From IMG/VR virus record IMGVR_UViG_3300032242_001280: a stretch of DNA of 64,000 bases; one strand, 5' to 3'. This document shows positions 5,239 through 52,200 of the stretch, in pieces. Made by a program: the position numbers and the translations under genes. How positions within the stretch are numbered: position 1 is the stretch's first letter; each line of letters starts with the position of its first letter. The notes beneath the pieces were generated by a model. That model saw nothing but the letters and a program-made list of their open reading frames with translations. It was not told the DNA's origin and made no database searches. The DNA is from a virus.

Positions 5239-6169
5239 TATCATTGACATTGCAGAATTAGATTGTATATTTTTAAGTTATAAAGAACCAAATGCAGACG
5301 CTAATTGGGCATTTGTGCGAAGCATTGCGCCATGGGTAAAGCGCGTCCATGGCATAGAAGGCAGTGATGCAGCACACAAGGCTGCTGGATTAGCCAGTGA
5401 AACTGATAGATTTATATTAATTGATGGAGATAATCAGCCTGATCCTGAATTTTTTAATCAACAACTGCGCCTTGCACCAGATAGTGAACACTGTGTATTT
5501 CGTTGGCGAGCAAAGAACGCTATCAACGGTCTTTGCTATGGCAATGGCGGTATCAGCAGTTGGACTAAAGACTTTGTTGCTAATATGCGAACACACGAAG
5601 CTACAGATGGCGGCGATGAAACCGTTGTAGAATTCTGCTATGATAAAGATTATTGGGCAATGCATGATGTATGGAGCACAACTGTTCCAAATTATAGCCC
5701 ACAACAAGCATGGCAAGCAGGATTTCGTGAAGGAGTTAAGTTATGTCTAGATCGCGGTCGTCGTCCATCTGCTGAAGAATTTGAAACTGCTGCATGGAGG
5801 GGTAATCGAGAAAATTTGGTTATTTGGTGCAGTGTTGGTACAGATGTTGAATTTGGAAAATGGGCAATCCTTGGAGCAAGACAAGGCGCATATATGACAA
5901 TGTTTGATGATAGTTGGGATTATCGTGAAGTTCGTGACTTCACAAAATTAGAAAAATTATGGGACGATACCGCAGATGATCAATTTAAAAATATTGACCA
6001 TTACGGAAATGTTTTGCGTAAAAGATTAGATTTAGACATCGTTACACTTTCGCCAGAGCACAGTGCTTGGTATAAAAAACATCAACGCCCATATTATAAC
6101 ATTGATATTATGCTTCCAGAGCGAGATTTTATTAGGACATTACATGAAACAGCTAGACAATTCAGGTGA
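5231..6169 (+). CDS. GT-A (GT2-like) glycosyltransferase
   Basis: FLSYKEPNA..RVHGIEGSDAAHKAA..SETDRFILIDGDN (DxD), NGLCYGNGG, AWQAGFREGVKL. Confidence 0.65.
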   Translation: MTNIIDIAELDCIFLSYKEPNADANWAFVRSIAPWVKRVHGIEGSDAAHKAAGLASETDRFILIDGDNQPDPEFFNQQLRLAPDSEHCVFRWRAKNAINGLCYGNGGISSWTKDFVANMRTHEATDGGDETVVEFCYDKDYWAMHDVWSTTVPNYSPQQAWQAGFREGVKLCLDRGRRPSAEEFETAAWRGNRENLVIWCSVGTDVEFGKWAILGARQGAYMTMFDDSWDYREVRDFTKLEKLWDDTADDQFKNIDHYGNVLRKRLDLDIVTLSPEHSAWYKKHQRPYYNIDIMLPERDFIRTLHETARQFR

Positions 6170-7574
6170 TAAGGCTACCGCTGATGAGAGCGGCGTTCTG
6201 CACAGCGACTTCATGTCTAGTGCCGAACAAATGCAAGCAAAGCTTGGACCTGCTCTTTGCTTGGCAAAGTGGCAGCAAACAAGTTTGCACCTAACAACTG
6301 GTCATACCAACAGTTGTTATCACCCACCACTGCACAGGATTGATGCCAATGAGTTACAAGATAACCCCAGTGCGCTCCATAACACCGCTCATAAAAAGAC
6401 CCAGAGAGCACGAATGCTTAGTGGAGAGAAGCCAGAAGAATGTTCATATTGCTGGCGAGTTGAAGCCACGGGAAACCTATCCGACCGACATTACAGATCG
6501 GGAGAACCTTGGGCTGCTGAGAAGTTTAGCGAGATTTTGGTTCAAGACCCTCTAACATGGAATACAAATCCTGCTTATGTAGAAGTAAATTTTAATAGTG
6601 CTTGTAATTTAAAATGTTCATATTGTAGTCCACAATTCAGCAGTAGTTGGATGAAAGAAATCAATGAATACGGTGCTTATCCTACTTCTAATAGTCATAA
6701 TAGTCCTGCTTACTTTCGTGGTGATCGTAAACCTATACCGAATAGGGAAGATAATCCTTATGTCGATGCGTTCTGGCGATGGTGGCCCGAACTCTACCCT
6801 AACCTAAAACATTTCCGCATGACAGGTGGCGAGCCTCTTATGGATCGCAATACCTATCGCGTATTTGATTATGTGTTAGACCATCCAAAGAAAGATTTAC
6901 ATCTTAATGTAACTAGTAACTTTAGCCAAGATGAATATGTGTTTGACAAATATCTAACTTATGTCAATCATATGTGTGGCAACGGTGTGTTAGAACATTT
7001 TATGCAGTTTGTATCTATTGATGGATTTGGGGAACGCGCCGAATATGCTCGTCATGGATTAGATTTTGCTTTAATGAAAAGTAATGTAGAAAAATTTTTG
7101 ACCGATGTGCCTTATCGCAATAGTGTAACATTTATTATTACAATGAACTCTCTTAATGTTACTAGCTTGCAAGATTTGCTAGAATGGATTCTTGAACTTC
7201 GTGCTAAACACAGCAAAACTTATCAGCGTGTTTGGTTTGATACTCCTATTTTGCGCGAACCAGCTTGGCAATGCATAGATCAGTTGCCACAAAGTTATAC
7301 TTGGAAATTAGAAAAAATTGTAGAATGGATGCGTCCACAGATTGAAACTCTTGATACTAGATTTAATGGCTTCAAAGATTATGAAATTTCTAAGTTACAA
7401 CGAGTCGTAGATTGGAAACGCGATAATCAAAAGAACGATACTGTTGTTCAAGCAGATTTCTATCGTTTCTTTAATGAACATGATGCTCGTCGTAAGACAA
7501 ATTTTCTTGAAACATTTCCAGAAATGAGCGATTGGTATAACAACTGTAAGTATTGGGCAGATAATGCGAAGTAA
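6144..7574 (+). CDS. Radical SAM protein with N-terminal twitch domain (RS1)
   Basis: CNLKCSYC, TGGEP; N-terminal CLAKW..SCYH..ECSYCW; ATG 6144 preceded by AGGA. Confidence 0.9.
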   Translation: MKQLDNSGDKATADESGVLHSDFMSSAEQMQAKLGPALCLAKWQQTSLHLTTGHTNSCYHPPLHRIDANELQDNPSALHNTAHKKTQRARMLSGEKPEECSYCWRVEATGNLSDRHYRSGEPWAAEKFSEILVQDPLTWNTNPAYVEVNFNSACNLKCSYCSPQFSSSWMKEINEYGAYPTSNSHNSPAYFRGDRKPIPNREDNPYVDAFWRWWPELYPNLKHFRMTGGEPLMDRNTYRVFDYVLDHPKKDLHLNVTSNFSQDEYVFDKYLTYVNHMCGNGVLEHFMQFVSIDGFGERAEYARHGLDFALMKSNVEKFLTDVPYRNSVTFIITMNSLNVTSLQDLLEWILELRAKHSKTYQRVWFDTPILREPAWQCIDQLPQSYTWKLEKIVEWMRPQIETLDTRFNGFKDYEISKLQRVVDWKRDNQKNDTVVQADFYRFFNEHDARRKTNFLETFPEMSDWYNNCKYWADNAK

Positions 7575-8919
7575 GAAACCAGACGAAACATTTCAAGAAT
7601 ATAAACAGCGTGTGTTAGATAGCAAAAGTGCATCTTTTTGTGGCGCTAAGTGGTATAATGCAACCATTTGGTTAGGCAGTGGACAGACCACAAGCTGTCA
7701 TCACCCGCTGCCACATAAAGTAAGTGTAGAACAGGTAATGAATAATCCTGCTGCGCTGCATAATACACCAGAAAAGAAAGCACAGCGTCTACAGATGCAA
7801 AAGGGTGAACGACCAAGTGGTTGTGAATATTGCTGGCGCATAGAAGATACTAGCACAACTACCATCAGTGATCGCCCTTATAAAAGTATGATATTCAGCG
7901 AGGAAGAGTTAAATGAAGCATTTAACCTCCCAAGTGAAAGTGATGTAAATTTAAGAACATTGGAGATAGCTTTTGACCGCACTTGCAATTTTGCCTGCTC
8001 TTATTGTAATCCTGCATTTAGCACGACCTGGGTCCGAGATATTAAGACGAATGGCAGTTATATCGGGCTTCACAGCGATGGGCGTAATCATTTTACGCAT
8101 CCTCATGATGGCAGTCAGCTTTATGGATATACCGATACTAATCCATATGTAGAAGCATTCTTTAAATGGTGGGAAAGTGATCTACACAAGACTCTTCGTG
8201 AGTTGCGTATTACAGGCGGTGAACCGCTTATGAGCGGACATACTTGGAAACTACTAGATTGGTTTAAAAACAATCGCGGCAAAAGCAATACTAAGATTGC
8301 CATCAATAGCAATCTTGGATTAGAACCAAAGAAACTTGACGAATTTATAGATGCTGTTCGTGGAATGGATATCGAAGTTTATACCAGTTGTGAAAGCATG
8401 ACTGCCCAAGCTGAATATATTCGTGATGGTTTAAATTATTATCAATGGTTTGACAATATGGTCAAACTACATAGCAGCGGTTCAGTAAAGCAACTGCATG
8501 TAATGGCAACTATTAATGGGCTATGCTTAACCAAACTTCCTGATTTTCTTGCGCATATGTTAGATTTTAAACAAGCATATGGTCGTGATAGTTTAACAGT
8601 TACTCTTAATATCTTGCGGTTTCCAAGTTTTCAGAGTCCATTAGTTATGCCTGTAGAAATTAAACAAGGGTGTGCAACAAGGTTGCAACAATTTTTAGAT
8701 AGTCTTGGCGATAACCATTGGTTGCATCAAATGGAGATAGAACATATTAAGCGTCTTATAGAATACTTAAATAGTACTGAAGCGCCGCATGCTGGTGCTA
8801 GTTCCATGGATGTATTGCAGAAAGATTTTAAACAATTCTATCAACAATACGACCAGAGGCGCAACAAAGATTTTATTAATACATTCCCAGAATTGAAAGA
8901 ATGGTACAATGACTTATGA
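7564..8919 (+). CDS. Radical SAM protein with N-terminal twitch domain (RS2)
   Basis: CNFACSYC, TGGEP; N-terminal CGAKW..SCHH..GCEYCW. Confidence 0.9.
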   Translation: MRSKKPDETFQEYKQRVLDSKSASFCGAKWYNATIWLGSGQTTSCHHPLPHKVSVEQVMNNPAALHNTPEKKAQRLQMQKGERPSGCEYCWRIEDTSTTTISDRPYKSMIFSEEELNEAFNLPSESDVNLRTLEIAFDRTCNFACSYCNPAFSTTWVRDIKTNGSYIGLHSDGRNHFTHPHDGSQLYGYTDTNPYVEAFFKWWESDLHKTLRELRITGGEPLMSGHTWKLLDWFKNNRGKSNTKIAINSNLGLEPKKLDEFIDAVRGMDIEVYTSCESMTAQAEYIRDGLNYYQWFDNMVKLHSSGSVKQLHVMATINGLCLTKLPDFLAHMLDFKQAYGRDSLTVTLNILRFPSFQSPLVMPVEIKQGCATRLQQFLDSLGDNHWLHQMEIEHIKRLIEYLNSTEAPHAGASSMDVLQKDFKQFYQQYDQRRNKDFINTFPELKEWYNDL

Positions 8920-10216
8920 TTACAATGACCGAACACCAGAATTTATTAGCTTAAATAAATTAACAGAAAAAGAAAAATTTTTACTTATGGAAAGTAAAAC
9001 TTTTTGTATGTTGCCTTGGACACATCTTCATGCATTTCCTACAGGACAAGCATATGTGTGTTGCAATTCTGAAATGAAATATCCAATTGGTAATTTGCGG
9101 GAATCTACAATAAAAGAAGTGTGGAACAGCGATTCCATGAAAAAAACTAGAACTAACATGGTCACTGAAACTAAATGTGGTTCGTGCGTGAGGTGTTACG
9201 AGCAAGAAGACGCTGGTTTTTTTAGTATGCGCAATAGTAGTAATAAAAGATTCGGGCATAATATTAAGCGTGTTGATAAAACACTAGAAGATGGGCATCT
9301 TGAAGATTTAACTTTATCATATTGGGATATTCGTTTTTCAAATTTATGTAATTTTCGATGCCGTAGCTGTGGTCATATTTTTAGTAGCAATTGGTATGAT
9401 GACCAAGTTAAACTGATAGGAGATGAAAAAAATGTTGATTATTTTAAAAAAAATAGTAAAAGAATAGAATACGCTGGAAGAACTCAATTAGATATATGGG
9501 AACAATTAGAACCACATTTAGATTATGTTGAACACATTTATTTTGCTGGCGGTGAACCACTTATAATGGAAGAACATTATAAAATTCTCAATGCATTATT
9601 AAAAAAAGGAATGAATAAGGTTAGGCTTATTTACAATACCAATTTCAGTGAACTTCGCTACAAAAAACAAAATGTTTTAGAGTTGTGGAATGAGTTTTCT
9701 AATGTTTGTGTAGGGGCCAGCCTTGATGCAATGGGTCCGTTGGCAGAATTAATGCGTAAAGGCACTGATTGGGAACAAACTGAGCGCAATCGTGAAGAAA
9801 TGTTGCGAATATGTCCGCAGGTTGATTTTTATATTAGTCCTACCCTGAGTGTAATGAATGTTTGGCAACTACCAAGTTTTCATCGTGATTGGGTACAGAA
9901 AGGTTTCATAAAACCACAAGATTTAAATGTTAATATTTTGCAAGACGCACCTTTCTTTAGGATTGATATATTGCCAGATCAATGCAAAGTAGATATTCAA
10001 GAAATGTATTTAGAACATATTGAATGGCTTAAACCGCTTGATAATTTAAAAAGAGCCGTGACTGGCTTTGAAAGTGCAGTTAACTTTATGATGGCAGATG
10101 ACAAATCACATCTTATACCACAATTTTGGGCTAGAACGAATAAATTAGATAGTATTCGTGGAGAAAAATTGTTAGACCTTGTTCCAGAGTTAAGGAATCT
10201 TGATGGAAAAAAATAA
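8909..10216 (+). CDS. Radical SAM protein with N-terminal twitch domain (RS3)
   Basis: CNFRCRSC, AGGEP; N-terminal CMLPW..VCC..IGNL..CVRC. Confidence 0.9.
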   Translation: MTYDYNDRTPEFISLNKLTEKEKFLLMESKTFCMLPWTHLHAFPTGQAYVCCNSEMKYPIGNLRESTIKEVWNSDSMKKTRTNMVTETKCGSCVRCYEQEDAGFFSMRNSSNKRFGHNIKRVDKTLEDGHLEDLTLSYWDIRFSNLCNFRCRSCGHIFSSNWYDDQVKLIGDEKNVDYFKKNSKRIEYAGRTQLDIWEQLEPHLDYVEHIYFAGGEPLIMEEHYKILNALLKKGMNKVRLIYNTNFSELRYKKQNVLELWNEFSNVCVGASLDAMGPLAELMRKGTDWEQTERNREEMLRICPQVDFYISPTLSVMNVWQLPSFHRDWVQKGFIKPQDLNVNILQDAPFFRIDILPDQCKVDIQEMYLEHIEWLKPLDNLKRAVTGFESAVNFMMADDKSHLIPQFWARTNKLDSIRGEKLLDLVPELRNLDGKK

Positions 10217-11372
10217 CTTTTGTATATTGCCATTTGTTTCTATTGAGGCAGACCCGATGGGTAAATGCAAGGTATGCTGTTTAAGCTATGAAACTATACC
10301 TGATATTGATTTAAAAAAAAATACACTAAGTGAAGCTTTCAATAGTTCTTATATGAACAATCTTCGTCAAAGTTTTTTAAATAATGAAAAACCTGCCAAT
10401 TGTAATCGCTGTTGGTCAGAGGAAGCAAGTGGCAGAACTAGTAAAAGAATGCATAGTCATGCTAGGTTGCGTGAGATACTAGGTGATACAAAATTTACAC
10501 ATAGTGCCGATGGTAGTCTTATGTTTATAGATTTGAAACTTGGAAATATATGTAATCTTAAGTGTCGTATATGTGGTAGCTATAGCAGTTCAAAATGGGC
10601 ACAAGAAGAAATTGATATCTATACTGGCAATCAAACTGCTAAAGACAATCTTGAAAAAGGTCGTTGGCCTCGCGAATCAAAAAGATTTTGGGAAGATTTA
10701 ACACACTTACTTGCAACTTCAAAATACTTTGAATTTACTGGCGGCGAACCCTTTTTAATTGACGAGCATTTTACTCTTTTAGAAATTGCAGTTGAAATGG
10801 GTTTTGCTAAAGATATTGAAATTCATTATAATACAAATCTTACTACATTTCCAAAGCGTGGATTAGAAATTTGGCCACATTTTAAACTGGTTGAAATAGC
10901 AGTAAGTGTGGATGATATCGGTCCACGATTTGAATATCAACGATATGGAGCATCATGGGACAAAGCAATGGATAATCTTCAACGCCTCCGTGATCTTCGC
11001 AGCGCAAGCACAAATATTAAATTACAGTTATGCTCGACTATTAATGTTCAAAATTTTTATTACATTGATGAAATGTGTGAATGGATTTTTCAACAAAAAT
11101 TTAATTATGTTTATTTTAATGTTCTGCACGATGCTTGGCATTTTAGTATTAGCAGATTAAATGATACTGCAAAAGAACTTATTAATAGTAAATTTAAAGC
11201 ATATGTTGGTCCATATTCGAGTGAAGTTACTAATCTATTGCTTTTTATGAATCAAGGCGAAGGCAGTGATTGTAAAAAACTTGTTCAAACATTAAAAAAC
11301 AGTGACATTCAACGCAAACAAAAATTTAGTGATCATCATAGTGAGATAGCGGCGGCAATAGGATATGAATGA
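10203..11372 (+). CDS. Radical SAM protein with N-terminal twitch domain (RS4)
   Basis: CNLKCRIC, TGGEP; N-terminal CILPF..VCC..CNRCW. Confidence 0.9.
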   Translation: MEKNNFCILPFVSIEADPMGKCKVCCLSYETIPDIDLKKNTLSEAFNSSYMNNLRQSFLNNEKPANCNRCWSEEASGRTSKRMHSHARLREILGDTKFTHSADGSLMFIDLKLGNICNLKCRICGSYSSSKWAQEEIDIYTGNQTAKDNLEKGRWPRESKRFWEDLTHLLATSKYFEFTGGEPFLIDEHFTLLEIAVEMGFAKDIEIHYNTNLTTFPKRGLEIWPHFKLVEIAVSVDDIGPRFEYQRYGASWDKAMDNLQRLRDLRSASTNIKLQLCSTINVQNFYYIDEMCEWIFQQKFNYVYFNVLHDAWHFSISRLNDTAKELINSKFKAYVGPYSSEVTNLLLFMNQGEGSDCKKLVQTLKNSDIQRKQKFSDHHSEIAAAIGYE

Positions 11373-12666
11373 TTTTTGTTTGGCTCCATTTACGCATACC
11401 TATATCTCGCCACAAGGTGAACGGCGGCTGTGTTGTGCGTCACGAGAACCTGCACAAAATTTTAAACAGTATATTGATACTGCTGGCGGTGATGGACAAT
11501 TTACGCCGCTCACGCTAAAGGATTGGTGGAATGGCGAACATATTAGGCAAATTAGAAAGCAATGGTTGGCTGGTGAGGTTCCATCAGCATGTGAGGTCTG
11601 CGATAAAAAGCTACTTAACACTTCTGTATATCGTGATTACTTTGGACATCTTTTTGGTCATCTACGAGATGCTGCGGTGGCTAATACAGATGCTAATGGC
11701 TATACAACCTTAGAACCAATCTCATGGGACTATCGTTATAGTAATGTATGCAACTTTAAGTGCCGTATGTGTGGCGATATGCTAAGTTCGGCATGGGAAG
11801 TTGAAGTTCGTAAAAACAATATGGTTGATCTAACCAATCCAAAAAATCATTGGATGCAGCCAAAGAACCGCCATGCTATTCGTGATTTTACTCGTGATGT
11901 GGTCATACCAGAATTTCGTGCGGCTATTGAAAATAAAAGTGTTCGTGAAATCTATTGGGTAGGCGGCGAGCCGCTGCTATATGATGAGCACTGGACATTT
12001 ATGCGTCGAATAATAGAACTTGACTATGCAGACCAAGTTCGTGTAAGATATAATACAAATCTTAGTTATTGTAAAGATAATAAAGGTACGCTATGGGAAT
12101 TGTTAGACAATTTTCCACATTGGGAAATATGTGCAAGTTTAGATGGAACAGGAGCGATAGGTGAGTATATTAGAACTGGTCTTAATTATAATGATTGGCT
12201 CGTTGATTTTCGACAGGGGATACAGCATCAGCGAAACTCTCGCCAAATGCGCATTGACTTTACTCTTACTTTACTTGGTTTATTTGACCTTACCAATGTT
12301 ATTAGTCTTGTTAATGATCTTAATGTTTCATTATTGAGCAAAGTAGTATTTGCTTTTTCTCCTGATATTCTCTTAAGTCCACTAGCACTGCCTAGAACGG
12401 TTCTAGCGCCGCTATTAAACGATATACAAGACCGCATCAAGCCACTTATTACTCATCGTACCCAAAGTTTATGGGACACCCTAGAACATCTCAAAACTCG
12501 TCCTACTTTTGAAGAACAGTTTCCTGATACCTACAAGCGAGAAGCAATTCAAGGAAAAAAACATATTTTAAAATTGGAATTGTTGAGAAAAGATGCTAAA
12601 ATAACAATAGAAGATATTTTAAATGCTAGCCCAGAAGTGTTAGCATGGTGGCGGGGTATATCATGA
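11365..12666 (+). CDS. Radical SAM protein with N-terminal twitch domain (RS5)
   Basis: CNFKCRMC, VGGEP; N-terminal CLAPF..LCC..CEVC. Confidence 0.9.
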   Translation: MNDFCLAPFTHTYISPQGERRLCCASREPAQNFKQYIDTAGGDGQFTPLTLKDWWNGEHIRQIRKQWLAGEVPSACEVCDKKLLNTSVYRDYFGHLFGHLRDAAVANTDANGYTTLEPISWDYRYSNVCNFKCRMCGDMLSSAWEVEVRKNNMVDLTNPKNHWMQPKNRHAIRDFTRDVVIPEFRAAIENKSVREIYWVGGEPLLYDEHWTFMRRIIELDYADQVRVRYNTNLSYCKDNKGTLWELLDNFPHWEICASLDGTGAIGEYIRTGLNYNDWLVDFRQGIQHQRNSRQMRIDFTLTLLGLFDLTNVISLVNDLNVSLLSKVVFAFSPDILLSPLALPRTVLAPLLNDIQDRIKPLITHRTQSLWDTLEHLKTRPTFEEQFPDTYKREAIQGKKHILKLELLRKDAKITIEDILNASPEVLAWWRGIS

Positions 12667-21387: not shown

Positions 21388-21451
21388 AATCATGTTCTCC
21401 AATGTTTATAACTTATAATAGCACAATATAGATGTTTGTCAAGAGAAAAAA

Positions 21452-21484
21452 ATAGGGGAGCAGTTTCACGGACTGCTCCCCTAT
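21452..21484 (-). terminator. Rho-independent terminator
   Basis: ataggggagcagt / actgctcccctat 13-bp stem with a T-run on the minus strand, after the MoxR gene. Confidence 0.85.
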
Positions 21485-21521
21485 AACTCGCCCTCACTGA
21501 TGGAGAACGATGGGGCGAGAA

Positions 21522-22652
21522 TTAGTCACGCACGGCGGCGAGAATATAATCACCGTTCTTTGCATGGTATTCCTTGTAGTTGTTCATCTTGCTAGTCTTG
21601 ATTGGCAACTTGTAATTGCGCAAGATGGTAGCAAGCATCATTACCTGCAGTTCTGTGTCCATATGATCGAGGAAGAAACGGAACACATTATCCAGTTCAC
21701 CGTGCCATGCAGTGTAATCACTTTCCTTCATCTTGTCACCGCCGCGATTGACAAACGAGTCCTTGAGTTCGTAGCAGATAGAAACAGTCAACGAGTACTT
21801 GGCACCGATTTCCTTAGTACGAAGTTCCTTGACTTTACCGTTCAGAATGTCACTAGGATTAGGCATCTGGCTTGCAACCTTACGGTGGGCAGCAAACTTG
21901 AGTGCAACACCTTCACCAACCGTACCGCTCACAAGGTCATTGAGTTCGGTATCGTTAAGGTCTTCTTGCAGAAGTTCGCTGACAAACGACCACGAGCGAG
22001 GCGTAGCAAACGATGCACCTGACGAGCGAGGATCGAAGTTGAACAAGTCATTCTTATTACAGGTGACATATGCAACCACATCAGGGTTGATAGCATGGTT
22101 GATAGCCCAATCATTCCACGACTCGAAGTCAACACGCAAGTTCAAGTGAACAAAACGGTTAGCAAGTGGCGATGGCATACGATAGACTACACCACGATCA
22201 GTATCGCGGTTGCCAGCAGCAACGATAACAACATTGTCAGGAAGTTCATAAGTACCAACACGACGATTAAGAACCAACTGGTAAGCAGCAGCCTGTGTTG
22301 CAGGTGCAGCACTGTTCATTTCGTCAAGGAATAGGAATACCACAGGATACTTGGCAGCTTCTTCTGCAGATGGCAGATCAGGCGGAGCATTCCACATAGC
22401 ATTGCCGACAGTAGGATTGTAGTATAGAACGCCCTTCAAGTCAGAAGGGTCCATGAGTGCAAGACGCAAGTCATACAACTTACCACCCATGCTTTCGCAA
22501 AGGTCTGCAACGAGTTCGGACTTACCGATACCAGGCGCACCCCAAAGGAATACAGGACGCTTGCGACGAGCGCAAACCATGACCTCACGCTTTGCAGCAG
22601 CGAGGGTAACCGTGCGCACTTCGGAAAGTGCAGTGTCAGTGTTCTTAGCCAT
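21522..22652 (-). CDS. MoxR-like AAA+ ATPase
   Basis: GAPGIGKS (Walker A), LFLDEMN (Walker B), AAGN, LANRF, TPRSW. Confidence 0.9.
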   Translation of the reverse strand: MAKNTDTALSEVRTVTLAAAKREVMVCARRKRPVFLWGAPGIGKSELVADLCESMGGKLYDLRLALMDPSDLKGVLYYNPTVGNAMWNAPPDLPSAEEAAKYPVVFLFLDEMNSAAPATQAAAYQLVLNRRVGTYELPDNVVIVAAGNRDTDRGVVYRMPSPLANRFVHLNLRVDFESWNDWAINHAINPDVVAYVTCNKNDLFNFDPRSSGASFATPRSWSFVSELLQEDLNDTELNDLVSGTVGEGVALKFAAHRKVASQMPNPSDILNGKVKELRTKEIGAKYSLTVSICYELKDSFVNRGGDKMKESDYTAWHGELDNVFRFFLDHMDTELQVMMLATILRNYKLPIKTSKMNNYKEYHAKNGDYILAAVRD

Positions 22653-22718
22653 TTTGTTTCTCCATCAGTTGACTATAATTTAATATAGCATATTATTTTG
22701 TTCTGTCAAGGACTTTTT

Positions 22719-23045
22719 TTACAGTGCACCCGTCCAACGGATGCAATCAAGGGTACCGTCTAGAACATTACCACGAGCAAAGTTCATAGCAGGAGCCTTC
22801 CAAGAGGCAGGTTTCAAGATATCACCTGCACGGAATTTTGGACCATCCTTCTTAACTACAAAAGAATGCACCGAATTACGCTGAATGATCTTGAAATACT
22901 TGCTGCCTTCCTCAATACGGATAGAGGCATTATATTCTTTAATCATCTTGGCGACGATTGGATCACTAGTACGGTTGCCGCTCCAAGCAAGATAATCGGC
23001 TTTGGACTTTTCAATGATAGCGGCGAGACCAGATTGCATATCCAT
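22719..23045 (-). CDS. Conserved phage hypothetical protein
   Basis: KYFKI..SVHSFV..GDILKPASWKAPA..ARGNV motif typical of large myophages; own promoter and RBS. Confidence 0.75.
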   Translation of the reverse strand: MDMQSGLAAIIEKSKADYLAWSGNRTSDPIVAKMIKEYNASIRIEEGSKYFKIIQRNSVHSFVVKKDGPKFRAGDILKPASWKAPAMNFARGNVLDGTLDCIRWTGAL

Positions 23046-23098
23046 GGGAAATCTCCGTTGCTGTTTATATTATAACAATAACACAGAATTAGGGTATG

Positions 23099-23353
23099 TC
23101 AAGCACTTTTTGGTTTATTTAACATCATTTCTTTTATAAGAAATTTGGCGATATTTAACTGCTGACGGATAAATTCATCAACATTTGGGGACGGAATTGA
23201 TGGATTTTTTCTATCCATCATTTCCTGACAATCGGAAAGAATACCCATGACGACCATCTCCACGCCAACCAGTTTAGCAGAGAGGCTGTTGATATATTGG
23301 TCACGGATATCGGCTCTAGACATGCCGTAGCAGATTTGTTCAGAATGCGTCAT
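23099..23353 (-). CDS. Hypothetical early protein
   Basis: Own promoter and GGAGAGA RBS. Confidence 0.7.
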   Translation of the reverse strand: MTHSEQICYGMSRADIRDQYINSLSAKLVGVEMVVMGILSDCQEMMDRKNPSIPSPNVDEFIRQQLNIAKFLIKEMMLNKPKSA

Positions 23354-23411
23354 GTGTATCTCTCCATTGCTTATATTAGTAATATAACACAGAATTAGAG
23401 GCTGTCAAGGG

Positions 23412-23582
23412 TTATTTTTTAACCCCGTCTGTGAGACCAATTGCCACACATTCGTTAGGAAATTTAGCCCACATTTCCGTGATAAGAGCAGCACGAGATT
23501 CCTCAATGCCAGGAATTTCAGCGATTTCGCTAAGGGTGATGATTTCTTCCACATACTGAGAAAATGACCAAGAATTGCGCAT
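23412..23582 (-). CDS. Small hypothetical protein (56 aa; not in ORF track)
   Basis: MRNSWSFSQYVEEIITLSEIAEIPGIEESRAALITEMWAKFPNECVAIGLTDGVKK*; GGAGAA RBS; own promoter (23612-23639). Confidence 0.7.
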   Translation of the reverse strand: MRNSWSFSQYVEEIITLSEIAEIPGIEESRAALITEMWAKFPNECVAIGLTDGVKK

Positions 23583-23648
23583 CCGTGTTCTCCATCAATT
23601 GACTATAACTTAATATAACATGGATTTAGGAGTTGTCAAGCGAAAAGT

Positions 23649-23858
23649 TTAGCTATTATCACCAGACCAGTATTTTAATTCAGCCTCAGTTATTGGCGCA
23701 ACTACCTGTGGACGCCGAACTGATGACAGAGTTGCCCATGGATTAACCCGACAAACAGCCTCTTGAATATCGGCATCATTGCATCCATCAGGAAGACGAA
23801 CTGTAACAGTGCCACCAAAATCTGCATAACCTTTTGGCCAAATTTCTAAGATAATCAT
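23649..23858 (-). CDS. Hypothetical early protein
   Basis: Own promoter and GGAGA RBS. Confidence 0.7.
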   Translation of the reverse strand: MIILEIWPKGYADFGGTVTVRLPDGCNDADIQEAVCRVNPWATLSSVRRPQVVAPITEAELKYWSGDNS

Positions 23859-23910
23859 AGCCGTCTCCGTTGCTGTTTATATTATAACAATAACACAGAT
23901 TTAAAGGTTG

Positions 23911-24114
23911 TCAAGCACTTTTTTCAAAGTAGCGGATATCGGCTTCCGTGGTATGGGGGTCTTCTGCACGGATTGCCGCAACCAACATGCCCCACTTATT
24001 ATCAAGTGCCTTGCTGATCGCATTGGCTTCATCATACCGACCAGTGTCCATATAAAGACCATAGATGGTTTCTAGGGCGGTCAGGTCCATGCGGATGGCT
24101 TCGATGTGGTCCAT
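23911..24114 (-). CDS. Hypothetical early protein
   Basis: Own promoter and AAAGGGA RBS. Confidence 0.7.
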   Translation of the reverse strand: MDHIEAIRMDLTALETIYGLYMDTGRYDEANAISKALDNKWGMLVAAIRAEDPHTTEADIRYFEKSA

Positions 24115-24168
24115 GGGGTATCCCTTTCTATTGCTTATATTATGAATATAACACAGGTTTAAGGATTG

Positions 24169-24816
24169 TCAAGCATCTTTTTTAATCCGCACATAGTGCA
24201 AACGGGTTTGGTTATTGTCATCGTGCTTGTGAACACGGGCTGTCAAATTAATGACAGTTCCACGCGCCAGTTGTTCGCTGAGAGGGAAGCAAACAAGGCA
24301 ATTATCGGCAGTAATTGCGGTATGGTACCACTTATTGTAATTGGCGCTATAAACCGCTGATTTGATTGTAATTTCTGCGGAAATGTTATCGCCAACCTTG
24401 CCAATGTGACGGCTATTTTCTGAAATTTGACGGATTTCATCGCGAGAATTTTCACGATCAATAGCGTTTTTATAGGAATTTGGAACGCTAGCAACCAGTG
24501 CTAAGGTCTTGAAATCCTTGGCATTAATCTCTTTTTGTTCGGTCAGCAGAACCAAGTTCTTCCAATAATCATGAAGAGTTCCAGCAACAAGTTCAATCAT
24601 TTTGCTGTCAAGATATTGGAGAATTTCATTAGCAATTTCAATGTCTTGTGGCAAATGGTCAAAGTTTACCATTTCTGGATTGAGAAATTCACGCATAAGT
24701 GCGCCATTGGAAAGTTCACCTTCCTTGGCATCATAACGCTTGATATACTTGCCATTAACCCTTTGGGCGGCTACGGCGGCGGTCATGGCATCTTTGAGAG
24801 AAATGGTATCAGTCAT
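24169..24816 (-). CDS. Hypothetical protein with probable C-terminal OB fold
   Basis: SRHIGKVGD..I...V...TRLHYVRI; start moved to ATG 24816 (AAGGA RBS). Confidence 0.65.
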   Translation of the reverse strand: MTDTISLKDAMTAAVAAQRVNGKYIKRYDAKEGELSNGALMREFLNPEMVNFDHLPQDIEIANEILQYLDSKMIELVAGTLHDYWKNLVLLTEQKEINAKDFKTLALVASVPNSYKNAIDRENSRDEIRQISENSRHIGKVGDNISAEITIKSAVYSANYNKWYHTAITADNCLVCFPLSEQLARGTVINLTARVHKHDDNNQTRLHYVRIKKDA

Positions 24817-24928
24817 TGCTAGTTTCCTTTTGCTTCTTACGATTATAACTGCCTTTGCCTTTTTTGGCAAGAACTATTCTCTGACGGTACAGAGGTTTCG
24901 CTAATTCTCTTGCTTCTGCGCTGCGCAT
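24809..24928 (-). CDS. arfA: ArfA-like alternative ribosome-rescue factor (39 aa; not in ORF track)
   Basis: MRSAEARELAKPLYRQRIVLAKKGKGSYNRKKQKETSND*; core matches E. coli ArfA [29 protein letters not shown] RBS; first gene after promoter 24955-24982. Confidence 0.75.
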   Translation of the reverse strand: MRSAEARELAKPLYRQRIVLAKKGKGSYNRKKQKETSND

Positions 24929-24978
24929 TGCCTTTCTCCATTGCTTATATTATGAATATAGCATGGATTATATATCTG

Positions 24979-25380
24979 TCAAGACATATTTTGAATGGCT
25001 TGTCCTAAATTATTGTCACAAAGTGTCAGCATTACACTTAATTCGTTATCCATTAGGAATAGTTCCCCTTTGCTCATTTGATAAAACCAAGGGTGATTAT
25101 GGTATCGATCCATCAGCACAATTTCTTTGCCGTTTATTTGATATTTGCGCCTATCTATATGATGTTCATAGAATTTATAACCATAATTACGCATTAGTTC
25201 AAATGCAGTATTATTAAGCCTAAACCCAAAATTTTTATTGTTATTGTACCAATAAAGAATATAGATATTTTTTTGATTTATGTTTGGAATAAATGCATCT
25301 TCGCCATGGGCCAAATGATATAACTCATGGGTCCATTCAGTTTTAGATTTTTTATTTTGTTGGGTAAACGGTTGGTCCAC
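24979..25380 (-). CDS. Hypothetical protein
   Basis: 133-aa ORF (GFRL...HPWF); start uncertain. Confidence 0.6.
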   Translation of the reverse strand: MDQPFTQQNKKSKTEWTHELYHLAHGEDAFIPNINQKNIYILYWYNNNKNFGFRLNNTAFELMRNYGYKFYEHHIDRRKYQINGKEIVLMDRYHNHPWFYQMSKGELFLMDNELSVMLTLCDNNLGQAIQNMS

Positions 25381-28391: not shown

Positions 28392-28453
28392 GGTAGTTCT
28401 CCGATTGACTATAACTAATATAACATATTTATTGGTCTTGTCAAGGGTTATTT

Positions 28454-44348: not shown

Positions 44349-47300
44349 TTACGATAGCTGTCTTACTGTCCAACCTGTAAAACCTGAATTATTCACTAGC
44401 GGCGTGAAATGGCGTAGTGCATCTTGATAGGAATTAAATTCTAATTCTTCGGATATCTGCGTTCCATTTTGAACAAATAAAGCATATGTGCCACGACCAC
44501 CAGGATTTGCAATTCTAGGTGTGTTATTAGTTACACTAATATTGGGATCATTTGCCCAATCTGGCGTAGGTTCAGCAGCAGGTTGATTTACAATAGCCTC
44601 GCCTGGTCCCATATAGAATAGTTCTTCTTCAGCGGTGTCTGGATCAATGGCATACATCGCCATGCCCCTAATTCCACCTAATGTGCCACCCCAACGCATT
44701 GAACTGCTATAGCGTCGTTGAACACTATTAGCATACTCTTTTGCTTGTTCTGGATTGTAGAAAGTAAATGAAGTAATATTTGCTCCAGTATCTGTGTATT
44801 TTAACACATACCTTACAGAACGACCTGTAGCAGCACCAGAAGCAGTTGTACTTGATTGTGGTGGTGCCGATGGTGGTGATGGCGCACGGTCTTCGCCACG
44901 AGTGGTAATACGCATCATTTCATCACGCATATATTGTAGTGAATATTCATCTAATACACGAACAGAAAGACGATCCGCTCGCAAGCCGCTTACGCCCCAG
45001 TTTACGCCCCAGTGTTTCTCTATTACTGGTATAGCTAGTTTTTCTATTTCACTTGAATATGTTGAATACATCTCAACCTGTGGTATAAACACCATAGTTT
45101 TACTGTCTGTTTCATTTGGATTGGTAGAATAGTATTGAACAGTCACTAAACTATAACCAGGATAGCGTAGGGCTATATCGCCCAGCGGCAGTTGACGAGC
45201 GTTAGCAAACTTTATTGCCGTCTCAATCATATCATATGGTGCAGTGCCGTTGATTTTTACAACATTTTCACCGTCTTCATTTTCCAAGAAACCATCAACT
45301 GGACCAGACCCAAGTGGTGCAACAGGCTTACGACGCTCTTGAGCAGTGCGTAATTCTTTTACAAGTTGTTCTTTGTTTATTGCGCCAGCAGTATATTTGG
45401 CAAACAGTTGCATCGTGTTATCTTTTTCACTGATACCGCCGCTTACAAATTTATACAGTTTCTTTTGATATTCTTGACGAGCATCTTCGGTATCAGCGGC
45501 TGCTCCCATAACACGAACATAACGCAACATAGTCTTGCGAATTTCTTCGTATTGCTCAAAGTAATTGCCGCCAGCACTGCGGAACTCAATATAGTTTGGC
45601 TTGATGTTTACGCTTACATAACGGTCGCCACGAGGAACCAACAGTTTATTGATTTCTTTTTTAGCAATATCTTCCAATCCACTACGCATCTTATCAAGGA
45701 TAGCAGGAATATTCTTTCTGCCACTTCTGCCACGCACTTCACGCTTGGCTTGGTCAAAACTACTCTTTGTCCATCGTGAACCAGCACGACCAAATGCTTT
45801 TAACACATACTCATCACCAAGCAACATAATCACTTTAAGATGGTCAATGTTTTCCATTGTTTGGTTAGGGATACTAACACCAATATGGAAACCAGTTGTG
45901 CGATTAGTATAATAATCATTGCTCTTTGCCCAACTGAAAACATTTTCTAACGCAGCCAAACCATCTTCCAAGTTCATTGGCGGTGATACAAGTTCAATGC
46001 CACCATCGCCATCATTGTTTGGACTATCAAGCGAACTATCTGGTTCAAATATCCAAGTGGTTTCATCACGGTCTGCTCCGTGATAACCGCTGCTTGCTCG
46101 TGCCTTATAACCAGTTGTGCGTCTAAAATCATCAACGACATCGCCAATGTCTTCGGTTGGTTCTTCTCTACTGCTGCTAAATGTATAATGCGGCCAAGTT
46201 AGCGATTCACGAGTATTGCGATTTACCCAACGCATCCAATCATACATATCACCAATGTTATTGCGATAAAGGAATTGACGCCAAATACCTTCTTCGTTTT
46301 CGCTCATCCAATTTTCACGAACGCTGTCTTTGGCATCATCAAGTTCACGCTCACTTGCTTCGTCCGCAGGAGTATCGCCTAATTCTTCTTGAATTGCATC
46401 TTTCCAATCTGTGGTATTTTCATAATTATCGTCATAATATTCAGATTGATAATCACTAAATGCTTCATAGAATAATTCTAGCGCACTTTCAACCTCACGG
46501 CGGGTATTGTGATCGCCAGCAAAAAAATCCATAACATCACGCTGACGATCACGATATGAAGCCGTGCCAGGAAAATCCTCATTGGTATCCATATCCTCTT
46601 CCTCTTCCTCTTCGCCTTCTTCGCCACCAAGACCAGGAATATACATTTCAGTTTCAAAACCAACTTTCATACTCTTGGCAAATGGTGTTTGGGAAAACTT
46701 TTCAAGAGATGTAGGACTCATATTGATTTCGTTAAGGATACTTTCTTCAAGGCTTTCTTCTCTATTTGGAACTTCTGCCAATTGCCAAGGTGCTGCCAAA
46801 TTATGTTCCTCGGCATAACTTACAGCATAACGACGAGCACCAGTTACACTTGCAGCGTTAAATGTATGAACAACACGACTTTCACTATCCAAAATATTAT
46901 ATGTTGTGCCATTTGTAGCAGTGATGTTTGCTTGTGGTCTTGGGATAGCATTGCCCGCAATATCATAACCACGATCAATTTCTGCTTGTGTATATTGGCG
47001 AGGTTGTTCTGGTTGTGGGCTTGGTTGAGGAATTACTTGACCTTGCGTATCCCATAGATTATTGTTGTTTGGTGATCTTATAGCAATACTTGCTAATGGT
47101 AGACCATGTTCTTGCGCAAATCTTTGGGCTGCTTGCGTTGCTGCGTAAAAACTTTGTGCTTGTGTTGCTAATAATTCTGTGCCATCGCTACGGTTTACAA
47201 CAACATAGGTTGCTGCGCTACCACTAGGCAATTGTAGTGCCTGTGTACCTGCACCAGGTATTGGTGTATTTGTGTCATCACTTGCAAGGGTTAGAAACCA

Positions 47301-49223
47301 ATCGCTATCACGATAGCCATATTCACGGGTCATACGAACAGCAATATCTCGTGCTTGCTCATTATCTGGCGCACGAAACTGTGTAACCGCCATTTGATTA
47401 TTTGCTAAGCGAATCATATACATTGGTTGCATAGATAATACAGGTCGGTCACCGCCAATTGATAATGGTTGGCGTGTTAGAATATCACCTGCTTGACCAT
47501 CACGGGTATCTTTTAACGCAACTAAGTCAAATGAACGACCACTTGCTCGCACTATGCGTGCGGCAATATCATATACATCACTGTAAGTAATTCTTGGAGA
47601 TACTACAAATTCTTGAATTACGCCACCAGTTATACGACTAATAATCTGGAATGTGATACCACCAATACCATCATAATCTACATGCGGTTCATCATCAGCC
47701 GCTAGTTTAGCATACGGATCACTTGACTGTGGTCGGTCTGACTTTGCTTTCTTGGCAAAATCACGCTTGCTTTGTGCATTCTTAATATAACTTACCAATG
47801 CTGTACGAGGCAGATTTCCAGTAGCAAACTGTGTAAAATACTTGATAGTATCAGTTTCATCTTTCTTATCAGCAGTTAACAGTTTCGCAAATTTCTTTTG
47901 ATATTCTTTGCGTTCCATCTCTGGATGTAGTGCGATATTCATAGCATATACAACACGGAGCAGTGTATTCACTACTTCATCAGTATTCATATCAAGCCAA
48001 TTGCCGCCTGGTGAACGAAACTCTACACGATTATCTTTAGTATTGATAGAGGTAAACTTATCAGTATAACCATTATGAATAAGTTTGGATGCTACGGTAT
48101 TCAAGCTCTTACGCATAGCATCTACGGCTTGGTCTGCTTTTGTAGGGTTTTGTTTAATGAATGATGCAATCTGGTCAAAAGCACTGCGAGCATAAGAATT
48201 GCCAAGACGACCAAACTTTTCAAGAATATACTTGTCGCCTAAAAACAACGCAAGTTTAACATAATCAAGTTTATCTAACTGATAACCTGGTATAGAGATA
48301 TTCATATGCAAACCAGTTTTATCATTGGTATAAGCATTGCCATCTTTTGCCCATGCTTTGACTTTATTAATTTGGTCAATCATAGTTGGAATATCAAGTG
48401 GCGGTGATACGAACTCTAAACCTTCGCCACCTTTGCCACGAGTAGGTGATAGGCTGCTATCTGGTTCAACCACATACGCATCGTTTGGCTTTGCAATACT
48501 ATGATAACTACCACTCTTAATAGTTTTCATACCAACAGCACGGCGGAAATCACCTACATCAACAGTAGAACGAGTTCTGCGGTCATATTCATCTGGTTCA
48601 GTCCAAACTGGCCAAGATAGCCCAAGATTGCTATCATTTGCCAAATCACTCATGTAATTACCACCATAGGTATCTTCTAAAAATTTTTCCAGATAATCAT
48701 CTATGTTATCATCATCTTCAATATTATCACGCCAAGTTTGATAGTATTCTTTTCTAAATGTTTCGTATGGATCAATGGCATCTAATTCACTAAACAGTTC
48801 TTGTTGGTTTTTATAATCACGACCATAACGCTTGTCAATAAAATCTTGAATACGATCACCTGCCCAAGTGTCCCATAGACCACTACCAATATAATCTTCC
48901 CATGCATCCTTCATTAAATCAATTGCACGATTTACATCACGGCGACTATTGTGATCGCCAGCGAAGAAATTCATAAGGTCTCGTTCTAAGTTGCTCCAAC
49001 TGACAGTAGAAACACGCTCATCTTGGTCATAATCTGGTTCGCTATCAAAATCTTCATATGGATCATAATCATCGTCCTCTTCTTCTTCAAGATTAGTGAC
49101 GATAAGTTCAAATTCAAGACCTGCCTTAGCATTGGGAATCTTTGCCACCGCCGCACGAAGGGCTGCTGGACTCATATTCACTTCATTTAGGATTTCTTCA
49201 AGGATCAGGTCTTTGTTTTTCAT
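44349..49223 (-). CDS. 1624-aa polyprotein with two amidoligase (COOH-NH2 ligase, Amidoligase_2-like) domains and repeated small accessory domains
   Basis: Two sets of G[LF]E[FT]E / EPDSSL / [LI]E[FL]VSPP / TG[LF]H / EFRS.GG motifs; start MKNKDLILEEILNE at 49223, 5 nt after GTAAATA. Confidence 0.8.
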   Translation of the reverse strand: MKNKDLILEEILNEVNMSPAALRAAVAKIPNAKAGLEFELIVTNLEEEEDDDYDPYEDFDSEPDYDQDERVSTVSWSNLERDLMNFFAGDHNSRRDVNRAIDLMKDAWEDYIGSGLWDTWAGDRIQDFIDKRYGRDYKNQQELFSELDAIDPYETFRKEYYQTWRDNIEDDDNIDDYLEKFLEDTYGGNYMSDLANDSNLGLSWPVWTEPDEYDRRTRSTVDVGDFRRAVGMKTIKSGSYHSIAKPNDAYVVEPDSSLSPTRGKGGEGLEFVSPPLDIPTMIDQINKVKAWAKDGNAYTNDKTGLHMNISIPGYQLDKLDYVKLALFLGDKYILEKFGRLGNSYARSAFDQIASFIKQNPTKADQAVDAMRKSLNTVASKLIHNGYTDKFTSINTKDNRVEFRSPGGNWLDMNTDEVVNTLLRVVYAMNIALHPEMERKEYQKKFAKLLTADKKDETDTIKYFTQFATGNLPRTALVSYIKNAQSKRDFAKKAKSDRPQSSDPYAKLAADDEPHVDYDGIGGITFQIISRITGGVIQEFVVSPRITYSDVYDIAARIVRASGRSFDLVALKDTRDGQAGDILTRQPLSIGGDRPVLSMQPMYMIRLANNQMAVTQFRAPDNEQARDIAVRMTREYGYRDSDWFLTLASDDTNTPIPGAGTQALQLPSGSAATYVVVNRSDGTELLATQAQSFYAATQAAQRFAQEHGLPLASIAIRSPNNNNLWDTQGQVIPQPSPQPEQPRQYTQAEIDRGYDIAGNAIPRPQANITATNGTTYNILDSESRVVHTFNAASVTGARRYAVSYAEEHNLAAPWQLAEVPNREESLEESILNEINMSPTSLEKFSQTPFAKSMKVGFETEMYIPGLGGEEGEEEEEEDMDTNEDFPGTASYRDRQRDVMDFFAGDHNTRREVESALELFYEAFSDYQSEYYDDNYENTTDWKDAIQEELGDTPADEASERELDDAKDSVRENWMSENEEGIWRQFLYRNNIGDMYDWMRWVNRNTRESLTWPHYTFSSSREEPTEDIGDVVDDFRRTTGYKARASSGYHGADRDETTWIFEPDSSLDSPNNDGDGGIELVSPPMNLEDGLAALENVFSWAKSNDYYTNRTTGFHIGVSIPNQTMENIDHLKVIMLLGDEYVLKAFGRAGSRWTKSSFDQAKREVRGRSGRKNIPAILDKMRSGLEDIAKKEINKLLVPRGDRYVSVNIKPNYIEFRSAGGNYFEQYEEIRKTMLRYVRVMGAAADTEDARQEYQKKLYKFVSGGISEKDNTMQLFAKYTAGAINKEQLVKELRTAQERRKPVAPLGSGPVDGFLENEDGENVVKINGTAPYDMIETAIKFANARQLPLGDIALRYPGYSLVTVQYYSTNPNETDSKTMVFIPQVEMYSTYSSEIEKLAIPVIEKHWGVNWGVSGLRADRLSVRVLDEYSLQYMRDEMMRITTRGEDRAPSPPSAPPQSSTTASGAATGRSVRYVLKYTDTGANITSFTFYNPEQAKEYANSVQRRYSSSMRWGGTLGGIRGMAMYAIDPDTAEEELFYMGPGEAIVNQPAAEPTPDWANDPNISVTNNTPRIANPGGRGTYALFVQNGTQISEELEFNSYQDALRHFTPLVNNSGFTGWTVRQLS

Positions 49224-49239
49224 GATATTATTTACCCGT

Positions 49240-52200
49240 TTATTGTAGCCATGCACCAGAAGCAGGTTGGTCAAGCACGATTGGTGGTATGCTATGATCA
49301 TCTGGCTCCAAGTATAAACTTTTAGCATCAAAGGTACTTGAAAGACGATCTGCATATGATTTTGCCCAAGCATATGCTTCACTTGGTGTAGCAAAGCGTT
49401 TTGGGTCAGAGAGATTAGAACCATATGGCGGTTCGCCAATCCATACTCTATAAATCTTTGTGCTAGCAACAAATGCTGATCTTGCTGCTGCATCTGCTTT
49501 ATCGGTCTGACGCTTCTGCAAGCGCATCTTCAACACATTTTGGTCAATTAAACCACTGGCATACATGGTAAAGTTTGAAAGTTGGTCATCATCTTGTGGA
49601 ATATGTTTGGCAATCATTGCATAAAGTTTTTTAGCATATTCTTCACGATATGCCTGTGGATCAGCCGCAATTGCCATTACCTGAACATAACGCAACACAG
49701 TATTCTTGATGTCGTCTATATGTTCCATGAAGTTGCCGCCAGCACTGCGGAACTCAATGTAATTTGTTTTTATATTCACACTTACATAACGATCAGTACT
49801 AATTGAACGATTTATAATCTCTTTTGCAACTTTTGCTAAGTTGGTGCGCAGTTTTTTTGCATACTCTTGTGGTGTTGTTGCGCTGCCTCGTCTTTTTAAC
49901 ATCTTTTGTATTTGTGTAAACATACTTTTAGTATATGCGTTACTGCCACGATCAAATAGGTCTAGCACATATTGATCACCAAGCAGCATTACTACTTTGA
50001 GTGGGTCAACTTTTGCTTGTAGTTCTTCTGGCAAACTAACTCCAACATGGAAACCAGTTGATGTATTGCCATAATAACCGTTTTGTCCTGCCCATTGGAA
50101 GAACTTATCAAGTGCTGCTATACCTTGTTGCAGCGGCATTGGCGGTGAAACAAGTTCAATGCCACTATCATCACCACTAATACTGCCATCAGGCTCAAGA
50201 ATCCAACTAGTAGCATCGCGTTTTGCGCCATGATATCCACTACTGACTTTTGTTTTAAAGCCGCTGTACTCATTCCAATTCTTTGCAAGTTGCGCTATCG
50301 TTATCACGCCACTAGGTTGCATATTTGGTTTTAAATAAGGGAACCATGCTCCACCACCGCCATATTCTGCATATTTTAGAACCCAATCGGATATGTGTTT
50401 AACATTTTCTGACTTTAGAAATTTTTTCCATTGCTTTTCATAATCTTCTGTGGAAAGTTCATTTATTGTTTTTGTAAAAAATATTGCTCGCGCCCGTGCA
50501 CCCAATCCATATGGATTGTTTGGTTCATCGGCAATTCTATCTCTTATCTCTCGCTGGCCTGACCAACCACTTCTGCGCCCGCCAAGATCGTCATAGATTT
50601 TTTTAGCAATTACTTTTAAATTTTCTGGTTTCAGCATTTCATCAATCATGCTAGGATTTTTCTCAACTATATAATCAATGAATGAATGTTTCAAGGTCAA
50701 TAAGTCATCATTTATTGCTGACAAATCACTTTCACCAGTACCAGCATCCTTATACCAGTTTAAGACTTCATCTTGCCATGTTCTAGTAATTGGAAATTTA
50801 ATATCTTTAGTCATATCCCAATTTCTTGCATCTTGGCGAGGATCAGATTCATCGTCATCTTCATCTTCTAAACCAGGTACTAGCATTTCTGCTTCAAATC
50901 CAATAGTCATTGCTTGTGCTTGTGGGGTGGCAGCAAACTTTGCCAATGAACCAGGTGACATGTTTACTTCATCAAGCTCACCGACATAATCTACTTCGCT
51001 GCCGCCTGTATCTGGCTGAACCCAACGGTCCCAAGGAAAAACCGCTACCTGACGGTCAGGATAATCATTACCACCGCCTACAGTTCCTATGATAGAGCCA
51101 GCATGTTCGCCAACAGAACTTGGACCAAGCAACTGCATAAACTTTGCTTTTTCTTGTGGTATTCTAAAATCATGACTTGAAGTTGCATTTCCTCTATTGC
51201 CATAATAAACATCTACGGCAATATTCGGTCTTGATAGTGCAGATGCTGCATAAACTCTATATAATTTTTTAAGACTACCTAATGTTCCCTCTAGAAAAAA
51301 TGTATTGGGAAGATTTACAAAACGAACATATCCTTGGGTAAATGCTTCTTCATATCCATCAATGTCGTTATCATAAAGCCATGACAGATGTTCTTCTGAA
51401 CCAACATATTCTACACGACGATTAGGCAAAATCCAACCATGTGTTTCATTTGTATCAAGTGCTTCTTCTACACTTTCTTTTTTGGCAGTGGCAGCACGGA
51501 TTTTAGCAATAGCACTTTGTGCGGCATTATCACTCTTGGCTGGTTGTTGTGCTTCTGCGTCCCATTTCTTGTGTAGGAATGTTAATAAACCTTTTAGGTC
51601 TGCAACACCAATCTTACGCATAGCAGCAATAATTTTATTAGCCTGATCATAGCCACTATTGCCTGGCTTGCGAGCATTTGAAATTTCATTGCGCAGACCT
51701 AAGTCATCAGCAAACTGACCGCCGTTCCAATAAGTTAAACTATAACGCAGTTCATTTGCTCGCTTGGATAACTCGCTGCGACTTTTCTTGAATATTAGTT
51801 CTAACCACGGACCTAACATTCGCTTACCATAATTACTGGTACTTACATAACCAGTTTTCTTTTGGCCACGAATTAAATCTTGGGCTTTGCTTACTGGTAT
51901 TGCTCGCTTGGTGTCCTGTAATTTCCATGCATTTTCGTTGCTATAGAGATATGTTGGTAAACCACGCTTCTTTGCTACAATCATCAACTGACGAGTAGTT
52001 GGACTTGCAAACTCACCTGCTTCTTTAAGCAGAATATGAACTGCTGTAATCGCATCTGCTGGTATTGTTGGCTCACGAGCAAATATACGGTCTTCGCTTT
52101 CACTGTGTTTTTGCTTATCAAATCCTGCCCAGTAATCAATAGCCTTCACAGGATAACGACGATTAAACCAATTACCATCAAGATTAAACATAACGGCAGT

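Follow-up and report, generated by a model that had tools for sequence, protein, structure and literature searches.

Can a peptide of 39 amino acids that lacks the first part of E. coli ArfA still rescue stalled ribosomes? This question is raised by a short gene in the window (by which we mean the whole stretch of viral DNA that was analyzed, 64,000 nucleotides). A sequence-only reading had proposed that the open reading frame at 24809-24928 encodes a hidden ArfA-like ribosome-rescue factor. We confirmed the open reading frame and its likeness to ArfA, and we can add that it lies on the minus strand, which was absent from that reading. The gene and the elements around it are:

24809..24928 (-): gene for a short ArfA-like protein of 39 amino acids, with its ATG at 24928-24926 and its TGA at 24811-24809
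24955..24982 (-): sigma70-like promoter, with TTGACA at 24982-24977, a 16-nt spacer that includes an extended TG, and TATATT at 24960-24955
24939-24936 (-): Shine-Dalgarno sequence GGAG, read from the sequence, 7 nt 5' of the ArfA-like ATG
24169..24816 (-): gene for a phage-only protein of 215 amino acids, co-transcribed with the arfA-like gene

The source is an uncultured jumbo phage of about 345 kb, distantly related to the Rak2/GAP32/Atu_ph07 type. Its DNA polymerase shares 44-46% identity with the enzymes of the jumbo phages Atu_ph07, Phosso, GAP32, PBECO4, and XbC2; relatives of the 215-aa neighbor gene are found on contigs of 343-348 kb; and the G+C content is about 38%.

The sequence-only reading had suggested an HMM search with the ArfA family, and we found that the peptide matches the Pfam family for ArfA (PF03889) with E = 6.3e-10. 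The score of 38.8 bits, which comes from positions 20-43 only of the 44 in the profile, is above the curated gathering cut-off (25.5 bits), and such a match is far above chance for a 64-kb window. The 16 short relatives that we aligned all match PF03889 as well. Furthermore, six distinct solved chains of E. coli ArfA from the PDB match the peptide (E ~3e-4), with 15 of 24 aligned residues identical, and this alignment confirms the E. coli motif that the earlier reading had given. A search of NCBIfam with the peptide gave no match, a search of PHROGs gave weak matches only (all to families of unknown function), and megablast of the region gave no match among GenBank phages. An exhaustive single-sequence HMMER search also returned long proteins in which as many as 10 stretches looked "ArfA-like." We consider these to be spurious because they are without KGxGSY and have Ala/Leu/Glu/Arg-rich repeats that fit the N-terminal helix by composition.

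Phage ArfA as a kind of gene is already annotated by JGI and in GenBank and is mentioned in two papers, so the gene is less new than the earlier reading implied, and the present window is one more instance. Gene g10 of Citromicrobium phage RXM was described as ArfA (PMC8953757), and gp30 of pelagiphage HTVC027P, which belongs to PF03889, shows strong early transcription, with high expression 3 h after infection and a second time late (PMC12753301). Some phages in GenBank, Brevundimonas jumbo phages included, bear the annotation "alternative ribosome-rescue factor." The gene is short, in keeping with its description as hidden, but the JGI gene caller had already called its metagenomic orthologues and named them ArfA. 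All of these are likewise small phage genes of PF03889; RXM, HTVC027P, and the Brevundimonas jumbo phages are of a different lineage from the present Rak2/GAP32/Atu_ph07-type phage. Our search of the literature turned up no biochemical assay of an ArfA from a phage or from the short class, nor any report of an ArfA truncated at its N-terminus. We add the observation that the short class of ArfA, shared by phages and SAR11, is without the activating arm.

The 39-codon open reading frame is a real gene under purifying selection. The nearest viral record that we found encodes an identical 39-aa peptide. In a scan of IMG/VR, the identical peptide turned up on 11 contigs, and relatives were present on 112 viral contigs. 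Metagenomic orthologues that are 85-90% identical share their gene order with the window (5'-3' exonuclease, small ORFs, ArfA, the 215-aa gene, a MoxR-type ATPase, and DUF2201). As the reference set for dN/dS we used two more diverged orthologues, L004 and L005. The ratio was 0.04 against L004 (dN 0.074; dS 1.67, which is saturated) and 0.15 against L005; in these comparisons, the amino-acid changes fall only within residues 3-10 and the final four positions, and the core is nearly invariant. The sigma70-like promoter and the ATG are conserved across the orthologous loci, and GGAG is kept in all of the orthologues. The stop codon has a constant position and is TGA in most orthologues and TAA in L004. 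Because the position is kept while the codon varies, we consider the stop to be genuine.

The promoter has 11 of 12 matches to the sigma70-type hexamers, and its -35 hexamer overlaps the stop codon of the upstream 133-aa gene. Downstream, the ATG of the 215-aa gene overlaps the arfA-like stop (ATGACTGA), and the two genes are translationally coupled; the next promoter after them is at 24172. These features support the arfA-like gene as the first of a two-gene unit with its own promoter, much as the earlier reading had described it (a strong ribosome binding site and the first position in a promoter cassette). The sigma70-like type of the promoter suggests that expression may be early. A 51-aa version of the protein has been called on sister contigs. 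We rejected it for this window, where an in-frame TAA (24952-24950) closes the upstream extension and where the ATG of the longer version falls within the TG/-10 element of the promoter.

The E. coli arfA gene has a long hairpin within its open reading frame; in contrast, the phage gene has no such hairpin or RNase III site and ends in an ordinary stop codon. The non-stop mRNA design of the E. coli type (an in-frame hairpin, an RNase III site or terminator, and a hydrophobic, unstable tail) is absent. We found no significant RNA structure in the phage arfA-like mRNA (z = -0.83), and the peptide continues for just 9 residues after the motif, all in a hydrophilic tail. Because the stop is normal and conserved, and because there is neither a hairpin nor a hydrophobic tail, expression of the phage gene should not hinge on the failure of tmRNA. 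In this respect, the sequence-only reading was correct: it had noted the normal stop and the lack of a hydrophobic tail, and had proposed constitutive ribosome rescue. As a separate observation, codons 12-17 of the arfA-like gene (24879-24894 of the window, minus strand) contain a 5-bp hairpin, CTCTG...CAGAG, which is kept in 4 of 4 distinct orthologues with one compensatory synonymous pair (T-A vs. G-C) and one G-U wobble. It sits too early in the open reading frame to give a functional truncated product.

How much of ArfA does the phage peptide retain? In E. coli, the core of ArfA binds in the A site, gives RF2 an additional strand, and fills the vacant mRNA channel. Cryo-EM studies found that Gln27-Glu30 add this strand to domain 2 of RF2, that a hydrophobic contact of Phe25 makes ArfA specific for RF2, and that the basic tail occupies the empty mRNA channel. 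Residues 2-24 fold into a hairpin, a minidomain that becomes ordered in concert with the opening of RF2, and within it Ala18 packs against Ile11 and C1914. A truncated ArfA (residues 1-40) is inactive, and residues up to ~46-48 are ordered.

In our alignment, Met1 of the phage peptide corresponds to Lys12 of E. coli ArfA, and the phage C-terminus corresponds to E. coli position ~50. The phage peptide has 39 amino acids, as compared to 72 for E. coli ArfA (about 55 in its active form). It shares with E. coli ArfA (YhdL; PDB 5MGP, 5MDV, 5U4I, and 5H5U) a common core of P-L-[FY]-R-Q-R-[VI] followed by KKGKGSY-x-RK, and residues 12-31 of the peptide read PLYRQRIVLAKKGKGSYNRK. Leu20, Pro23, Leu24, Arg26, Gln27, Arg28, KKGKGSY, Arg41, and Lys42 of the E. 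coli protein are kept, and Phe25 and Val29 are kept as Tyr and Ile, respectively. The basic KGKGSY segment (KKGKGSYNRKKQK) is present, and the peptide is long enough to cover the region that is ordered in E. coli, past the end of the 1-40 truncation. The RF2-recruiting strand is present at the sequence level (Y14 and Q16-R17-I18-V19), and the aromatic residue and R17 are found in every member.

The N-terminal side is different. The phage peptide is without E. coli residues 1-11, which are the first arm of the minidomain (Thr7, Lys8, and Ile11); it begins at the tip of the hairpin, and the minidomain with its Ile11/Ala18 core is incomplete. Ala18 is replaced by Arg in the phage and by Lys in relatives, Leu19 is replaced by Glu in the phage and by Ala in relatives, and the Lys-His motif of the E. 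coli tail is missing from the phage peptide. The elements for sensing the channel and for recruiting RF2 are thus present, and the activation element is halved. Judged by its sequence, the phage gene is a homologue of ArfA that lacks two canonical features of the E. coli type, namely the complete minidomain and the non-stop regulation. The earlier reading was right about the homologous core but overlooked the loss of residues 1-11 and the change of Ala18 to Arg. Because the first arm is absent and the Ala18 position is Arg or Lys, activation of RF2 is not to be assumed. A complex prediction with the peptide family (A4) and E. coli RF2 scored 0.01, which we count neither for nor against binding.

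By analogy with E. coli ArfA, we propose that the peptide is a constitutive, RF2-dependent rescue factor that is made early in infection, and we give this a probability of roughly 0.6. We favor this proposal because the peptide matches PF03889 and keeps key ArfA residues, because dN/dS is low and the stop is conserved, and because the peptide reaches position ~50, has relatives on 112 viral contigs, and has a highly expressed counterpart in HTVC027P. It is weakened by the loss of the minidomain arm, Ala18, Leu19, and the Lys-His motif, and by the species specificity of ArfA/RF2 pairs. Under our proposal, the RNA polymerase of the host would transcribe the gene from the sigma70-like promoter, probably early, and translation of an ordinary, stop-terminated mRNA would let the peptide accumulate whether or not tmRNA works. 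When a ribosome has run to the 3' end of a cleaved mRNA and stalled, the basic KGKGSYNRKKQK tail would enter the empty mRNA channel, as in E. coli, and the YRQRIV segment would contribute a strand to domain 2 of RF2. RF2 could then hydrolyze the peptidyl-tRNA without a stop codon, which would free the ribosome and yield a product without the ssrA tag. The phage might benefit by recycling ribosomes that are stranded by mRNA degradation during takeover or by RNase-type defenses. That phages need rescue for these reasons (breakdown of host mRNA, or RNase-type defenses) is our conjecture, and specific roles in host shut-off or against abortive infection, as put forward by the sequence-only reading, are speculation.

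The halved activation element also suggests another role, in which the peptide would fill the empty mRNA channel and perhaps recruit RF2 in its closed form without triggering release. In E. coli, ArfA(A18T) behaves in this way: its binding to the ribosome and to RF2 is intact, yet it is inactive in release. The phage peptide has lost the first arm of the minidomain that activates RF2, and a bulky residue (Arg, or Lys in relatives) stands where E. coli has Ala18. As a takeover device, such a peptide could block trans-translation by tmRNA-SmpB along with the host's own ArfA, or it could titrate RF2. We think that this is unlikely, given where else the same architecture is found and what is conserved within it.

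For a survey of the class, we used the pattern KG-x-GSY-[ND]-R to collect open reading frames at 80 loci from viruses and 80 from cells. At 78 viral loci, the median length was 43 amino acids, the median tail was 9 residues, and the G-x-I-x-D-N-A arm was never present (0/78). The 22 loci from Pelagibacteraceae had a median length of 38 amino acids, a median tail of 6 residues, and no arm either (0/22). The 58 loci from other bacteria (mostly Gammaproteobacteria) had a median length of 67.5 amino acids and a tail of 25 residues with a hydrophobic end, and 56 of them had the arm. The short architecture without the arm is, as far as these sequences indicate, a class and not an oddity.

The Pelagibacteraceae (SAR11) copies are chromosomal. 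They encode ArfA-like proteins of 38-42 amino acids with a normal stop, like the phage gene, and share 51-58% identity with the phage peptide along almost its entire length. Both SAR11 and phage peptides have about 24 residues before KGKGSY, and the basic tail of the SAR11 form has 5-6 residues. The SAR11 form differs in being cellular, with a conserved housekeeping neighborhood, and in having Lys-Lys in place of Pro-Leu before the aromatic residue. For example, one copy (L143:1992-2108, plus strand) scores 28.1 bits against PF03889, has no hairpin, and is surrounded by genes for DapB, an HhH-GPD glycosylase (endonuclease III-like), a PfkB kinase, and YkuD; a second locus (L095) has the same layout of open reading frames. 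A published survey reported arfA in 0 of 2,376 Alphaproteobacteria, yet SAR11 has copies, which implies that standard searches have overlooked the short form.

In the streamlined genomes of Pelagibacteraceae, a gene that inhibits rescue would come at a cost, and the location of the short form on the chromosome, among housekeeping genes, is our chief reason for regarding it as a working cellular factor and not an inhibitor. Furthermore, R2, A6, and L9 of the helix vary little or not at all throughout the short class, which suggests that the N-terminal element is functional and has not decayed.

Other short copies are found in phage-like contexts: near a T4-type clamp and clamp loader, near a phage DNA polymerase A, and near phage genes for S21, HSP70, and NAMPT. 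There are also ArfA-like cores inside longer open reading frames, as judged from predicted starts, at six IMG/VR loci (L046, L047, L049, L050, L067, and L068). Some of these are 114-116 amino acids long and carry the core C-terminally; the others, of 159-163 amino acids, have a long lysine-rich extension. Finally, a 101-aa open reading frame from Mesorhizobium sp. SP-1A (L096) combines an N-terminus of the short phage/SAR11 type with a 67-residue tail and is possibly an alphaproteobacterial example of the non-stop design.

The peptide could also be related to rescue but act with another partner, either RF1 or a phage protein, or without any release factor. If it acts with no release factor, it might merely displace tmRNA-SmpB, so that phage products would escape ssrA tagging. 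The N-terminal helix is unlike the patch of ArfA that binds Trp319 of RF2 (Leu19 is lost), and rescue factors of similar design do use other partners or modes. Specifically, BrfA from Bacillus and ArfT from Francisella are likewise small, basic sensors of the empty mRNA channel that recruit a release factor; they have no detectable sequence kinship with the phage peptide and are analogues of mechanism only. However, after KGKGSY, the most strongly conserved features of the peptide are the RQRIV strand and the aromatic residue that corresponds to F25, through which E. coli ArfA recruits RF2 and is specific for it, and no adjoining partner gene is conserved in different phages. We consider a different partner to be quite improbable. 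It is very hard to believe that this basic peptide binds nucleic acids and has no role at the ribosome, or that it is what remains, now drifting, of a gene captured from a host. Very short peptides rich in lysine and arginine, like this one, do bind nucleic acids non-specifically, but this one is under strong purifying selection, it matches PF03889 above the curated cut-off, and it is widely conserved in phages.

If the peptide does act in RF2-dependent rescue, then large phages bring their own rescue factor, freed from the cell's control by tmRNA, which would suggest that ribosomes stalled on cut mRNA are a real bottleneck or battleground during infection. The short class in phages and SAR11 would be a natural minimal ArfA, which raises the question of how RF2 opens without the first arm of the minidomain. 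The class also extends ArfA-like genes to the Alphaproteobacteria.

The promoter of the arfA-like gene belongs to a family. The motif CTTGACA-N7-AA-N4-TG-N-TAT-NN-T (CTTGACA-N7-AA-N4-TGNTATNNT) occurs 11 times in the window, as compared to 0.01 expected occurrences. Eight copies on the minus strand form an array at 21.4-25.0 kb (21415-24983), and each precedes one or two small genes. Further copies are at 28417, 43752 (plus strand), and 61289, and several copies have the leader ATAATATAAGCAAT in common.

We also examined the 215-aa protein encoded next to the ArfA-like peptide. Its strong matches are to uncharacterized phage proteins only, and the family is widespread and phage-only. The structural model (pLDDT 89.4) has a helical N-terminal domain and a C-terminal beta-barrel. 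The modeled barrel looks like an OB fold, with weak resemblance to the OB folds of IF1, the S1 domains of the exosome, and RPA (all PDB matches have E > 0.001). The 215-aa gene was not found as a conserved neighbor of ArfA in other phages. Given the weak PDB matches and the lack of a conserved partnership with ArfA, we do not use this gene as a clue to function.

Elsewhere in the window, five adjacent genes at 6063-12666 (plus strand) match radical SAM families, which is unusual for a phage. Two of these genes (8909-10216 and 11365-12666) also have SPASM domains, and the genes that flank the cluster have no family matches. The minus strand also contains two giant open reading frames, at 44349-49493 (1714 amino acids) and at 49240-54918 (1892 amino acids), with patchy PHROG matches to cytidylyltransferase, ParB-like, and amidoligase families.
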